From the NCBI RefSeq assembly GCF_988242995.1, contig NZ_OZ547043.1: DNA of 64,000 nt; one strand, 5' to 3'. Under the pieces are notes generated by a model. That model was not told the DNA's origin, did not search any database, and saw only the letters and a program-made list of their open reading frames with translations. How positions within the stretch are numbered: the stretch's first letter is position 1; the number at the start of each line of letters is the position of its first letter. Of this stretch, positions 26,759 through 32,067 are shown piece by piece. The position numbers and the translations under genes are program-made.

Positions 26759-29191
26759 ATGAGTGTGATTGCGCAGGCAGGGGCGAAAGGTCGTCAACTG
26801 CATAAATTTGGTGGCAGTAGTCTGGCTGATGTGAAGTGTTATTTGCGTGTCGCGGGCATTATGGCGGAGTACTCTCAGCCTGACGATATGATGGTGGTTT
26901 CCGCCGCCGGTAGCACCACTAACCAGTTGATTAACTGGTTGAAACTAAGCCAGACCGATCGTCTCTCTGCGCATCAGGTTCAACAAACGCTGCGTCGCTA
27001 TCAGTGCGATCTGATTAGCGGTCTGCTACCCGCTGAAGAAGCCGATAGCCTCATTAGCGCTTTTGTCAGCGATCTGGAACGCCTGGCGGCGCTGCTCGAC
27101 AGTGGTATTAACGATGCGGTGTATGCGGAAGTGGTGGGTCACGGTGAAGTGTGGTCGGCGCGCCTGATGTCTGCGGTGCTTAATCAACAAGGGCTGCCAG
27201 CGGCCTGGCTTGATGCCCGCGAGTTTTTACGCGCTGAACGCGCTGCGCAACCGCAGGTTGATGAAGGGCTTTCTTACCCGTTGCTGCAACAGCTACTGGT
27301 ACAACATCCGGGTAAACGTCTGGTGGTGACCGGGTTTATCAGCCGTAACAACGCTGGTGAAACGGTGCTGCTGGGGCGTAACGGTTCCGACTATTCCGCG
27401 ACACAAATCGGTGCGCTGGCGGGTATTTCTCGTGTAACCATCTGGAGTGACGTCGCCGGGGTATACAGTGCCGACCCGCGTAAAGTGAAAGATGCCTGCC
27501 TGCTGCCGTTGCTGCGTCTGGATGAAGCCAGCGAACTGGCGCGTCTGGCGGCTCCCGTTCTTCACGCCCGTACTTTACAGCCGGTTTCTGGCAGCGAAAT
27601 CGACCTGCAGCTGCGCTGTAGCTACACGCCGGATCAAGGTTCCACGCGCATTGAACGCGTGCTGGCCTCCGGTACTGGTGCGCGTATTGTCACCAGCCAC
27701 GATGATGTCTGTTTGATTGAGTTCCAGGTGCCCGCCAGTCAGGATTTCAAACTGGCGCATAAAGAGATCGACCAAATCCTGAAACGTGCTCAGGTGCGTC
27801 CACTGGCGGTTGGCGTGCATAACGATCGCCAGTTGCTGCAATTTTGCTACACCTCAGAAGTGGCCGACAGTGCGCTGAAAATCCTCGACGAAGCGGGATT
27901 ACCTGGCGAACTGCGCCTGCGTCAGGGGCTGGCGCTGGTGGCGATGGTCGGTGCAGGCGTCACCCGTAACCCGCTGCATTGCCACCGCTTCTGGCAGCAA
28001 CTGAAAGGCCAACCGGTCGAGTTTACCTGGCAGTCCGATGACGGCATCAGCCTGGTGGCAGTACTGCGCACCGGACCAACCGAAAGCCTGATTCAGGGGC
28101 TGCATCAGTCCGTCTTCCGCGCGGAAAAACGCATCGGCCTGGTATTGTTCGGCAAGGGCAATATCGGTTCCCGCTGGCTGGAACTGTTCGCCCGTGAGCA
28201 GAGCACGCTCTCGGCGCGTACCGGCTTTGAATTTGTGCTGGCAGGTGTGGTGGACAGCCGCCGCAGCCTGTTGAGCTATGACGGGCTGGACGCCAGCCGC
28301 GCGTTAGCCTTCTTCAACGATGAAGCGGTCGAGCAGGATGAAGAGTCGCTGTTCCTGTGGATGCGCGCCCATCCGTATGATGATTTAGTGGTGTTGGACG
28401 TTACCGCTAGCCAGCAGCTTGCTGACCAGTATCTCGATTTTGCCAGCCACGGTTTCCACGTCATCAGCGCCAACAAACTGGCGGGAGCCAGCGACAGCAA
28501 TAAATATCGCCAGATCCACGACGCCTTCGAAAAAACCGGGCGTCACTGGCTGTACAACGCCACCGTCGGTGCGGGCTTGCCGATCAACCATACCGTGCGC
28601 GATCTGATCGACAGCGGCGATACTATTTTGTCGATCAGTGGGATCTTCTCCGGCACGCTCTCCTGGCTGTTCCTGCAATTCGACGGTAGCGTGCCGTTTA
28701 CCGAGCTGGTGGATCAGGCGTGGCAGCAGGGCTTAACCGAGCCTGATCCGCGTGATGACCTTTCCGGCAAAGACGTGATGCGCAAGCTGGTGATTCTGGC
28801 GCGTGAAGCGGGTTACGACATCGAACCAGATCAGGTGCGCGTGGAATCGCTGGTGCCTGCCCATTGCGAAGGCGGTAGCATCGACCATTTCTTTGAAAAC
28901 GGCGATGAACTTAACGAGCAGATGGTGCAACGGCTGGAAGCGGCCCGCGAAATGGGGCTGGTGCTGCGCTACGTGGCGCGTTTCGATGCCAATGGCAAAG
29001 CGCGTGTGGGCGTGGAAGCGGTGCGTGAAGACCATCCGCTGGCATCACTGCTGCCGTGCGATAACGTCTTTGCCATCGAAAGCCGCTGGTATCGCGATAA
29101 CCCTCTGGTGATCCGCGGACCAGGCGCAGGGCGCGATGTCACCGCCGGGGCGATTCAGTCGGATATCAACCGGCTGGCGCAGTTGTTGTAA
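26759..29191 (+). CDS. metL: Bifunctional aspartokinase II / homoserine dehydrogenase II (810 aa)
   Basis: MSVIAQAGAKGRQLHKFGGSSLADVKCYLRVAGIMAEYSQPDDMMVVSAAGSTTNQLINWLKL... Confidence 0.97.
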   Translation: MSVIAQAGAKGRQLHKFGGSSLADVKCYLRVAGIMAEYSQPDDMMVVSAAGSTTNQLINWLKLSQTDRLSAHQVQQTLRRYQCDLISGLLPAEEADSLISAFVSDLERLAALLDSGINDAVYAEVVGHGEVWSARLMSAVLNQQGLPAAWLDAREFLRAERAAQPQVDEGLSYPLLQQLLVQHPGKRLVVTGFISRNNAGETVLLGRNGSDYSATQIGALAGISRVTIWSDVAGVYSADPRKVKDACLLPLLRLDEASELARLAAPVLHARTLQPVSGSEIDLQLRCSYTPDQGSTRIERVLASGTGARIVTSHDDVCLIEFQVPASQDFKLAHKEIDQILKRAQVRPLAVGVHNDRQLLQFCYTSEVADSALKILDEAGLPGELRLRQGLALVAMVGAGVTRNPLHCHRFWQQLKGQPVEFTWQSDDGISLVAVLRTGPTESLIQGLHQSVFRAEKRIGLVLFGKGNIGSRWLELFAREQSTLSARTGFEFVLAGVVDSRRSLLSYDGLDASRALAFFNDEAVEQDEESLFLWMRAHPYDDLVVLDVTASQQLADQYLDFASHGFHVISANKLAGASDSNKYRQIHDAFEKTGRHWLYNATVGAGLPINHTVRDLIDSGDTILSISGIFSGTLSWLFLQFDGSVPFTELVDQAWQQGLTEPDPRDDLSGKDVMRKLVILAREAGYDIEPDQVRVESLVPAHCEGGSIDHFFENGDELNEQMVQRLEAAREMGLVLRYVARFDANGKARVGVEAVREDHPLASLLPCDNVFAIESRWYRDNPLVIRGPGAGRDVTAGAIQSDINRLAQLL

Positions 29192-30285
29192 TCCTGAGCC
29201 AGAGAAAGCAGTATTTGCGTAACGCGCCCTGCGGAAAGCGGGGGGCTGTGAGTAAATACTGCTTGTTTATGTAGCCAGTCGATAAAATGTCTGCTGGTTG
29301 CGAAAGAGAGTATTTCAGCTTTGCTGTTATTTCCGCCTGTTAATGCACATACCATTTTACGATTTTTGCCCTGAACCCAGAGTTGCCACTGATTTTTCCA
29401 CCAGCCGTGATAAGTTTTTCCCTGAAAACGCCAGGGCGTATTATCGGTATAGTCAGCTATTTCCTCTTCAATAAACCAAATCTCACCTTGCTGTTGGCGA
29501 AACAGTTCTGCCCAGGCCGTAATAATCGCACCTCTTAAAAAACACTCGTGTGAAATTACATGTGTTTTTACTGTAGGGAATAAAATATTCAGTACTCTAA
29601 AATGCCCGTGCGCTGTGATAACCGGACGCAGAATAACACCTTTAGCATTGCGCTTGAGCGCTGCGCTGCCATACTGAATTTCATCAAACTGACTGCGGTG
29701 TAGAAATTGTGCTTCGCGCATATCAACGCGTTGTACAATATTATTGTCGTGTAACTCTGGTTCTGCATTTCCTCTGTATCGATAATGCAGACTTTCTCCA
29801 GCCTGATGCTGCGTGTAATTAGTAGAAAGATGAAGAATATTACCGCGAAGAGCATCAAAACTGATTAAAACATACAGTTTCTGCCCGCCGCTGGCTCCCT
29901 GAAATGGCACCAGAAGAGCAACCGTTTCGATTATTTCAGGAGGCGTTATTTCTTTCTGATATTGTTTAGGTGTCCATACTTTTTTGCAGTTACGACATTG
30001 AATGCGTTGCGACCCCTGTGGATTGTGGCCATAACAAATCGTCTTTGTGCCATAACATACCGGGCAGAAATGACCTTTCTCAGTTGCAAAAGTAGATAAG
30101 TGAACTGACAACCAGTCACGAAATTGCTGTTCGTCAAACAACGGCGGGTAACTTCCACATGCCCGACAGTGCAGTGCCGGATAACCCAGTCGATAGTCTG
30201 GCCAGCTGTAATCTGTCGATGTTGGTTGCCCTAAATTACGACAACCAAACGACTTGCAGGCATTAATCGTAAACAGAGTCGACAT
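29155..30285 (-). CDS. Hypothetical protein (376 aa) with two N-terminal Cys4 zinc-ribbon motifs and an unrecognised C-terminal domain of about 270 aa; not part of the K-12 gene order
   Basis: Long ORF with SD-like GGTG 7 nt upstream; Cys pairs C10/C15+C40/C43 and C74/C77+C97/C100 (FCPVCYGTKTICYGHNPQGSQRIQCRNCKKVW resembles InsA/IS1595-type zinc ribbon); no DDE motifs found by eye; 3' end overlaps metL 3' end by 37 bp. Confidence 0.6.
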   Translation of the reverse strand: MSTLFTINACKSFGCRNLGQPTSTDYSWPDYRLGYPALHCRACGSYPPLFDEQQFRDWLSVHLSTFATEKGHFCPVCYGTKTICYGHNPQGSQRIQCRNCKKVWTPKQYQKEITPPEIIETVALLVPFQGASGGQKLYVLISFDALRGNILHLSTNYTQHQAGESLHYRYRGNAEPELHDNNIVQRVDMREAQFLHRSQFDEIQYGSAALKRNAKGVILRPVITAHGHFRVLNILFPTVKTHVISHECFLRGAIITAWAELFRQQQGEIWFIEEEIADYTDNTPWRFQGKTYHGWWKNQWQLWVQGKNRKMVCALTGGNNSKAEILSFATSRHFIDWLHKQAVFTHSPPLSAGRVTQILLSLAQDYNNCASRLISD

Positions 30286-30417
30286 ATATCACCAACGATT
30301 TCACAAGGTCGTTGATTTTGTCCGGCAACTATCCCCTGCGGATGTGATTACTCTCACATAAATAACTCTTTCAGAACGTAATGTAGCAATCCTTTAAATC
30401 ACTGAAAGGGACTATTT

Positions 30418-31971: not shown

Positions 31972-32037
31972 AAGTACGTATTGAGTTGATTCATCTGTTT
32001 GTTACCAGTTGATTTTGCAGATCCAGTATTCGGCCTA

Positions 32038-32067
32038 CGCGAGGGCGCAGGCCGAATCAGATGCCTT
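32038..32067 (+). other. Stem-loop downstream of the 517-aa gene (possible terminator or REP-like element)
   Basis: attcggcct-(12 nt)-aggccgaat, 9-bp perfect stem; no U-tract. Confidence 0.35.

Follow-up and report, generated by a model that had tools for sequence, protein, structure and literature searches.

The 64,000-nucleotide stretch of contig NZ_OZ547043.1 (RefSeq assembly GCF_988242995.1) analyzed here, hereafter called the window, carries between metL and metF two divergent genes that are absent from Escherichia coli K-12: one encodes a 376-amino-acid zinc-ribbon protein (Zn376), and the other a 517-amino-acid predicted periplasmic 5'-nucleotidase of the UshA/CD73 superfamily (NT517). 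We consider it fairly probable that the two genes form an old enterobacterial unit for the scavenging of nucleotides, which was deleted toward K-12 and about two thirds of E. coli, and that Zn376 is the regulator of this unit. According to the list of open reading frames (ORFs), an intact metL (26759-29191, plus strand) is followed by the putative regulator gene (29155-30285, minus strand), the nucleotidase gene (30418-31971, plus strand) and metF (32353-33243, plus strand), in the overall order metB, metL, Zn376, NT517, metF, katG. The Zn376 ORF overlaps the end of metL over 37 bp, and 132 bp lie between the two divergent genes. An earlier note on this DNA had described the 3161-bp spacing between metL and metF, the two divergent ORFs and the 132-bp spacer, and had held the extra DNA to be absent from the K-12 gene order; all of this stands, as metL (b3940) and metF (b3941) are annotated as adjacent in K-12 MG1655, with a gap of 348 bp.

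NT517 consists of a Metallophos domain (PF00149, E-value 1.2e-11) and a 5_nucleotid_C domain (PF02872, E-value 2.2e-38). The metal-binding motifs DxH, GD, GNHE and GHxH can be read intact in its translation as NDLHAH, DAGDY, GNHEFD and TGHAH, and YTNDLHAH is kept in nearly all of its orthologs. NCBIfam models assign the protein to the UshA/CpdB/YfkN superfamily; with 149.9 bits against an equivalog cut-off of 600 (NF007109) it does not score as an UshA ortholog, and by its sequence it is a paralogous branch and not UshA itself. Residues 19-517 are ~98% identical to PDB entries 3IVD/3IVE, deposited as "Nucleotidase". We take 3IVD to be a structural-genomics entry for the putative 5'-nucleotidase c4898 of E. 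coli CFT073 with a bound pyrimidine nucleoside. Residues 1-21 (30418-30480, plus strand) are a predicted Sec signal peptide that, read by eye, ends in A-C-A before K22, and the PDB construct of 3IVD begins at about residue 19. The protein is not a lipoprotein, as is shown by orthologs with WASA before KD. The ratio of nonsynonymous to synonymous divergence (dN/dS) of NT517 is 0.03-0.06. The nucleotidase is therefore best described by what is already on record, as a structurally solved, functionally unstudied enzyme whose periplasmic location is predicted; the literature searched yielded no substrate profile or physiological role for it, and nothing relevant on c4898, on 3IVD, on the Salmonella locus tags or on InsA in connection with nucleoside regulators.

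A scan of one genome per bacterial species, with reference proteins mapped onto the loci found, gave 37 loci in which the company kept by Zn376 could be followed. The combination of a zinc-ribbon protein with a nucleotidase, which the earlier note had not recognized as a module, is a genuine and recurrent two-gene pair, as Zn376 is divergently paired with an NT517 ortholog in every enterobacterial locus that holds enough flanking DNA. In Enterobacter hormaechei, E. asburiae and a Klebsiella species the pair lies elsewhere in the chromosome, together with a second or third nucleotidase and Tsx, and this extended pair is also found as a second copy in some E. coli and Citrobacter. Among the distant relatives of Zn376, with 19-40% identity, all ten distinct contexts sampled directly adjoin a gene of nucleotide or nucleoside metabolism or transport. 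For instance, the gene of Motilimonas (L045) is divergent from a deoD-tal-deoB-nupC operon on one side and has add downstream, on the same strand, on the other. The relative designated P0136 (L047) is divergent from genes for a NupC-type transporter and a nucleoside phosphorylase, and P0139 (L049) from genes for a phosphopentomutase, a phosphorylase and a nucleoside:H+ symporter; P0147 (L052), as well as the L043-type and P0123 (L050) relatives, are each divergent from a 5'-nucleotidase gene. The partners thus belong to different protein families of one pathway, which suggests the usual signature of a pathway-specific regulator, this being an association and not a proof.

The 132 bp between the two genes (30286-30417) are strongly conserved in about 35 species (alignment A3 and the 37 loci), and are more conserved there than the Zn376 coding sequence. 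The region contains a perfect CRP core consensus, TGTGAttactcTCACA (30343-30358), which is the only exact match in the window, where 0.04 would be expected by chance. From the center of this core it is 65.5 bp to the start codon of Zn376 and 67.5 bp to that of NT517. The core is kept as TGTGA-N6-TC(A/G)CA in the 37 loci, and CRP would be expected to bind at this position. Conserved blocks lie on both sides of it. The block beside the Zn376 start, CACCAACGATTT-N6-GGTCGTTGATTTTG (30290-30320), contains the inverted repeat CAACGA-N10-TCGTTG, and within the block ACCAACGATTT is identical in all 37 aligned sequences that cover the position; it may be an operator and/or the -10 element and 5' untranslated region (UTR) of the Zn376 promoter. 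The block before the NT517 start, CTTTCAGAACGTAAnGTAGC...CTGAAAGG (30367-30409), is marked by its conservation in the 37 loci and by its uniqueness. Candidate weak -10 elements can be discerned by eye as TAATGT on the plus strand (30379-30384) and CAAAAT on the minus strand, each ~41 bp from the center of the CRP core; this spacing would suit two class II CRP-dependent promoters that share one site. TGTGA-N6-TCAC(G/A) sites are likewise present upstream of the distant homologs, where the gene is directly preceded by a short inverted repeat of other sequence.

Other readings of the control region did not hold up. No Rfam family matched 29000-32500. The CTTTCAG...CTGAAAG repeat before the NT517 start was considered as a riboswitch-like leader and rejected, as it has mismatches without compensation in several species and because it would lie partly upstream of the predicted transcription start. 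The invariant ACCAACGAT beside Zn376 recurs at the NT517 codons for T-N-D, and was rejected as a second binding site: this is a coding coincidence, because the codons vary synonymously (ACCAACGAT in 23 of 35 sequences, ACCAACGAC in the window). Nor does the region have the makeup of a CytR-type promoter, since it holds a single CRP core; inspection of the 132 bp by eye found no convincing pair of CytR octamers, the best word, GTAGCAAT, matching six of eight positions.

Zn376 itself has no significant match in Pfam, and PADLOC defense models match neither Zn376 nor NT517, which gives no support for a defense system. The only NCBIfam matches, over residues 74-105, are sub-threshold ones to the zinc-binding domain of IS1/IS1595 (NF050000, 21.3 bits against a cut-off of 28). 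The protein has eight cysteines that make up two 4-Cys zinc ribbons (C10/C15/C40/C43 and C74/C77/C97/C100). Close homologs are confined to Enterobacteriaceae. The family as a whole, as recovered by an exhaustive profile search, is small; it counts 148 representatives at 50% identity, and its full-length members reach as low as ~19% identity. The profile of this family (alignment A4) aligns with InsA of IS1 from the second ribbon through the columns of the InsA helix-turn-helix (HTH) at an hhalign probability of 96.9% (E-value 1.5e-10), and the Pfam domain Zn_ribbon_InsA (PF03811) is detected in 11 of 63 family members at E <= 0.001. No similarity to InsB is found (hhalign probability 0.2%). 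A comparison of the family profile with PDB sequences returned only artefacts of C2H2 zinc-finger spacing, which were discarded. In the longer relatives, of 404-570 amino acids, the segment that aligns with the HTH comprises ~50-75 residues after the second ribbon and would fall between residues 111 and 112 of Zn376 (alignment A4).

According to an AlphaFold2 model built on a 63-sequence alignment (pLDDT 94, pTM 0.93), which replaced an 18-sequence model with a pLDDT of 49, the core of Zn376 has the RNase H-like fold of DDE (Asp-Asp-Glu) transposases and integrases, with a five-stranded mixed sheet and flanking helices. Its structural neighbors in AFDB are members of the same family from Enterobacterales and Vibrionales, named "cytoplasmic protein", "InsA N-terminal zinc ribbon" or "IS1 family transposase", none of which has been characterized. 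When the catalytic positions are placed by the order of secondary-structure elements, and not by superposition, the strand-1 position (residue 121) is a threonine or serine in 60 of 63 sequences, R220-P221 follows strand 4, and E247 is the only conserved acidic residue; the canonical DDE triad is therefore absent from Zn376. The gene is nevertheless kept by purifying selection, because its dN/dS over inter-genus distances is 0.09-0.18. The marks of an insertion sequence, i.e., terminal inverted repeats, a target duplication, several copies and a variable location, are missing as well: the locus occupies a median of one place per genome, and its synteny is fixed across genera. By sequence and predicted structure, Zn376 would thus be a domesticated transposase-like protein, neither an active insertion sequence nor a relic of one.

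A working scheme for the unit can be proposed from these features. NT517 would be exported to the periplasm and dephosphorylate nucleotides there to nucleosides for uptake, which in longer versions of the locus would be aided by one or two more nucleotidases and by a Tsx-type nucleoside channel. When preferred carbon sources are scarce, cyclic AMP-CRP would turn on both genes in class II fashion from the one central site. Zn376 would serve as a locus-specific regulator that binds the conserved blocks over the two core promoters, as InsA does at the ends of IS1, and that responds to a nucleoside or nucleotide signal to tune expression. What we infer in this scheme is that CRP is required, that Zn376 binds DNA and senses a ligand, and which way the regulation runs. 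A broader proposal is more tentative, and we would put it at somewhat less than an even chance: Zn376, together with relatives from Enterobacterales, Vibrionales and Alteromonadales, may represent an unrecognized family of regulators domesticated from an IS1-like transposase, in which the core senses a nucleoside or nucleotide and which controls scavenging together with CRP. The ancestor would have combined the InsA ribbon and HTH with a dead RNase H-like core.

Several observations weigh against Zn376 as a regulator. Its main weakness is the loss of the InsA-like HTH, which is present in the 404-570-amino-acid relatives and absent from the whole 376-amino-acid enterobacterial clade; any DNA binding in this clade would therefore rest on the zinc ribbons alone. 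Since both conserved blocks coincide in part with the predicted -10 elements and 5' UTRs, their conservation could be due to promoter function alone. R197, H228, H246, E247 and R251 in the core are invariant or near-invariant, and D/E201 and Y205 are also invariant or nearly so; the former set could equally mark an enzymatic or metal-binding site. Finally, in four distant lineages the zinc-ribbon gene lies downstream of its partner on the same strand, directly after a 5'-nucleotidase gene in P0165 (L051), P0181 (L053) and P0191 (L056) and after a nucleoside phosphorylase gene in P0212 (L054), which fits an accessory protein. The missing HTH, the conserved core residues and these operon-like tandems together favor an alternative in which Zn376 is a cytoplasmic enzyme or accessory factor of nucleoside or nucleotide metabolism with a re-purposed RNase H-like site, e.g., a metal-dependent hydrolase or nuclease. 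We regard this as rather unlikely. The canonical catalytic positions are non-acidic, as described above, and the partners vary among periplasmic nucleotidases, nucleoside phosphorylases, phosphopentomutase and transporters of the NupC/NupG type, which is typical of a pathway regulator. Moreover, the gene most commonly diverges from its partner across a conserved control region that both share, and the InsA-type ribbon, which is a DNA-binding module in IS1, has been retained.

As to the origin of the unit, the pair takes up the metL-metF interval in ten or more enterobacterial genera. The site is occupied in eight Citrobacter species, Klebsiella pneumoniae, K. oxytoca, K. spallanzanii, Kosakonia, two Phytobacter species, Superficieibacter, two Kluyvera species, Pseudocitrobacter, Escherichia whittamii and another Escherichia clade. 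Salmonella enterica subsp. arizonae has the pair there too, with a truncated zinc-ribbon gene. Identity to the window in Citrobacter freundii, K. pneumoniae, Kosakonia and S. arizonae is 78-82% for the nucleotidase gene and 83-85% for metL and metF. This is the expectation for vertical descent along with the flanks, and K-12 has therefore most likely lost the pair; the simplest reading of the sequences is that the pair is ancestral at metL-metF and was lost in K-12-like E. coli. The headline of the earlier note, an insertion of horizontal origin, is not supported, as the same pair sits at this site across genera with a divergence roughly in step with that of its flanks, and the fallback offered there, namely ancestral DNA lost in K-12, fits both the synteny and the flank-like divergence.

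Homology to the K-12-type chromosome breaks at 29192/29193 and 32202/32203 (blastn), and the segment absent from K-12-type E. coli thus spans 29193-32202 (blastn breakpoints and alignment to a K-12-type locus, L002). The right flank (32203-33243, plus strand) comprises a 150-bp metF control region common to K-12, followed by metF. The earlier note had placed the met boxes of metF in a retained stretch of about 380 bp before the gene; the part common to K-12 is only these 150 bp, and the met box GGACGTCT is indeed within them (32288-32295). Alignment shows a replacement and not a clean indel, in which 3010 bp of the window stand against 197 unrelated bases in K-12. This K-12-type filler (L002 1793-1989) holds a palindrome resembling repetitive extragenic palindromic (REP) elements, GCCGGATTAAGCGTTTACGACGAATCCGGC, and RefSeq annotates a 44-codon hypothetical ORF in it on the opposite strand. 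The GC content of the 3.0-kb segment is 46.3% (44.8% in the Zn376 gene and 48.1% in the NT517 gene), compared with 58.3% in metL and 52.3% in the whole window; it is below that of its flanks as had been stated, by a smaller difference than the hand-counted 35-45% implied. Also in agreement with the earlier note, the segment is not a classical genomic island: the ORF list and the repeat and tRNA checks found no integrase or recombinase gene, no tRNA gene or attachment site, and no meaningful direct repeat at its borders. A 14-nt repeat, ACCATCCG(C/G)TGGCA, at 29031 and 32074 was considered as a substrate for the deletion and rejected, because the end of metL, which lies between the copies, is kept in K-12.

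Within E. coli, the locus was scored as present where at least 80% of 28900-32500 was held, and by this measure it occurs in 1,837 of 5,426 complete genomes (~34%). Three alleles exist at metL-metF: the empty K-12 type (~66%), the two-gene form of the window (1,181 genomes, O25b:H4-ST131 strains among them) and a five-gene form (659 genomes, including Nissle 1917, UM146 and ATCC 25922). The order of the latter is metL, a tsx paralog, a nucleotidase pseudogene, a nucleotidase gene, a hypothetical gene and a divergent nucleotidase gene that adjoins metF. RefSeq names Zn376 "cytoplasmic protein" or "hypothetical protein", and NT517 "bifunctional metallophosphatase/5'-nucleotidase". The five-gene form corresponds to the genomic region GR31 (metL to metF) of a 2026 comparison of the avian pathogenic E. 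coli (APEC) strain BEN2908 with extraintestinal pathogenic E. coli (ExPEC) strains, whose authors suggest a coordinated system for the processing and uptake of nucleotides and nucleosides (PMC12928451). Between the two occupied alleles (the window and L009 6300-7424), synonymous divergence (dS) is 1.16 in Zn376, with 76% amino acid identity, and 0.15 in the nucleotidase, with 98% identity; the last ~200 bp of the Zn376 gene are barely alignable. Such a pattern speaks for an old replacement of the allele or for a breakpoint of recombination within the gene. In the five-gene allele, the extra nucleotidase gene that is annotated as a pseudogene (L009 9248-10867) has an internal stop, and a near-consensus CRP site, TGTGATCTTAGTAACA (L009 7544-7559), lies ahead of the downstream set of nucleotidase and Tsx genes. 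A second, paralogous module elsewhere in E. coli SCPM-O-B-8794 (L019) and Escherichia sp. MOD1-EC7003 (L038) has Tsx and up to four nucleotidase genes; in the former strain, the nucleotidase gene adjoining the zinc-ribbon gene is frameshifted.

Not everything about the locus accords with simple descent and deletion. The K-12 state is not a clean deletion, given the unrelated bases in place of the segment, and the contrast in dS between Zn376 and the nucleotidase means that recombination has had a part in shaping the locus as well. In Pseudocitrobacter vendiensis, the insert (L010 5363-8128) is 90-93% identical to that of the window and the metL/metF flanks 83-86%, which indicates transfer of the unit between genera by homologous replacement. 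One could accordingly suppose that the K-12 order is ancestral, and that the segment was recently inserted beside metL in the lineage of the window strain from another enterobacterium; the low GC content of the segment, the capacity of the unit to move between genera by recombination and the depth of divergence between Zn376 alleles within E. coli would all be in keeping with this. A recent insertion is nonetheless improbable in our judgment: ten or more genera, and several species of Escherichia, have the pair at this very site, in most genera the nucleotidase has diverged in step with its flanks, the locus lacks any mobility gene, tRNA gene or target duplication, and the empty site of K-12 contains an unrelated REP-like filler and not a clean joint. 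The view of Zn376 as an IS1-like transposase that is still active or has decayed recently, with the nucleotidase as a passenger of a mobile element, is strongly disfavored and hardly credible, since its InsA-like ribbon, its predicted DDE transposase fold and the automatic annotation of some family members as "IS1 family transposase" stand against a copy number that is as a rule one per genome, a syntenic position that stays the same from genus to genus, the lack of terminal inverted repeats, target duplications and InsB similarity, a DDE triad that is not conserved, and a dN/dS (0.09-0.18) that indicates a host gene under selection and not a decaying insertion sequence.

A few further features of the locus may be recorded. 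A hairpin with 27-nt arms (29206-29264, plus strand; inverted repeat I1; RNA fold -41.1 kcal/mol, z = -4.65) starts 15 nt past the metL stop codon and lies wholly within the 3' coding end of Zn376; in the window allele it probably serves as the terminator of metL, in which case this stretch would be both protein-coding and a terminator. K-12 uses a different hairpin, within the 197-bp filler. A GC-rich hairpin, ATTCGGCCTACGC-GAGG-GCGCAGGCCGAAT (32028-32057, plus strand; inverted repeat I15 and fold), is found 57 nt past the NT517 stop codon and is possibly a terminator or a REP-like element; no run of T follows it. A 167-amino-acid ORF on the minus strand (32188-32691), antisense to the start and promoter of metF, has no annotation support in related genomes and is probably spurious. 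The gene for CytR, which represses the regulon of nucleoside catabolism and transport, is located at 20479-21504 (minus strand), only 8.7 kb from the nucleotidase locus; the gene order is cytR-priA-rpmE-yiiX-metJ-metB-metL, and this closeness may be coincidence. In C. freundii, a LysR-type regulator gene and a gene of the carboxymuconolactone-decarboxylase family (L004 3897-5272) lie between the nucleotidase gene and metF, and the metL-metF interval therefore gathers other cargo in other genera. In S. arizonae, the zinc-ribbon gene (L042 7001-7729) matches only residues 126-368 of Zn376 and the nucleotidase is intact; several fragmentary Salmonella copies of the zinc-ribbon gene are also present in AFDB, and in Salmonella this gene seems to be undergoing decay.

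Part of this locus is already known, as RefSeq, one comparative-genomics paper and the PDB between them cover the polymorphism, the nucleotidase and the five-gene region. The earlier note had allowed that the pair might prove to be a widespread annotated locus of known function. Widespread it is, and annotated too (RefSeq, GR31, 3IVD), but known function does not extend to the zinc-ribbon partner, for which the literature and databases searched gave no assigned function. The same sources held no report of the domesticated-transposase nature of this partner, of its link, across the family, to nucleoside and nucleotide genes or of the conserved control region centered on CRP. The polymorphism in presence and absence is routine in itself, and the interest of the locus lies in Zn376. 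Predicted periplasmic nucleotidases that are missing from K-12 occur in about a third of E. coli, among them ST131, Nissle 1917 and further extraintestinal lineages, and in most of the Klebsiella and Citrobacter examined; K-12 is therefore an incomplete model for the use of extracellular nucleotides by enterobacteria in the gut or urine.

Among characterized systems, NT517 resembles 3IVD/3IVE and the UshA/CD73/YfkN superfamily in its Metallophos and 5_nucleotid_C architecture, its motifs and its predicted Sec signal, and differs from UshA in not being its ortholog; the published comparison gives the nucleotidase ~27% identity to YfkN (PMC12928451). GR31 of APEC BEN2908 and ExPEC strains lies at the same point of the chromosome and shares the nucleotidase that adjoins metF, but it is the 7.8-kb five-gene form, with Tsx, three nucleotidase ORFs and a hypothetical gene, whereas the window has the two-gene form. 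The hypothetical gene of GR31 is, by the identity and dS given above, a very different allele from the Zn376 gene of the window, and the accessible text of the GR31 paper is silent on the hypothetical protein, on the control region and on any distribution beyond E. coli (PMC12928451).

The locus has in common with the CRP/CytR regulon (tsx, deo, cdd, udp, nupC, nupG) the kinds of genes involved, i.e., a Tsx paralog and genes of nucleoside catabolism and transport, along with a consensus CRP site. CytR promoters, however, have tandem CRP sites ~52 bp apart with octamer repeats between them, whereas the locus has one CRP site, and it has its own candidate regulator from an unrelated protein family. 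NrdR consists of a zinc ribbon and an ATP-cone, and TldR proteins are nuclease-dead TnpB repressors derived from transposons. The likeness of Zn376 to both is conceptual, without any relationship in sequence or fold: like NrdR, it would join a zinc-ribbon DNA-binding module to a domain that could sense nucleotides, here without the ATP-cone, and like TldR, it would represent a transposon-derived nuclease fold re-used for gene control in the absence of catalysis, with no evidence of a guide RNA for Zn376. The closest parallel is IS1, in which InsA is the N-terminal protein of the transposase and an autorepressor that binds the terminal repeats of the element. The second ribbon of the Zn376 family is homologous to that of InsA, the longer members also align over the InsA HTH, and the proposed binding of Zn376 beside its own promoter would parallel the action of InsA. 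On the other hand, Zn376 has no InsB-like sequence and no HTH, has an extra N-terminal ribbon, and is single-copy, syntenic and non-mobile. If Zn376 is indeed a regulator, it would add a missing regulator to the nucleoside regulon and would be, to our knowledge, a rare documented case of a bacterial transcription factor derived from a DDE transposase.

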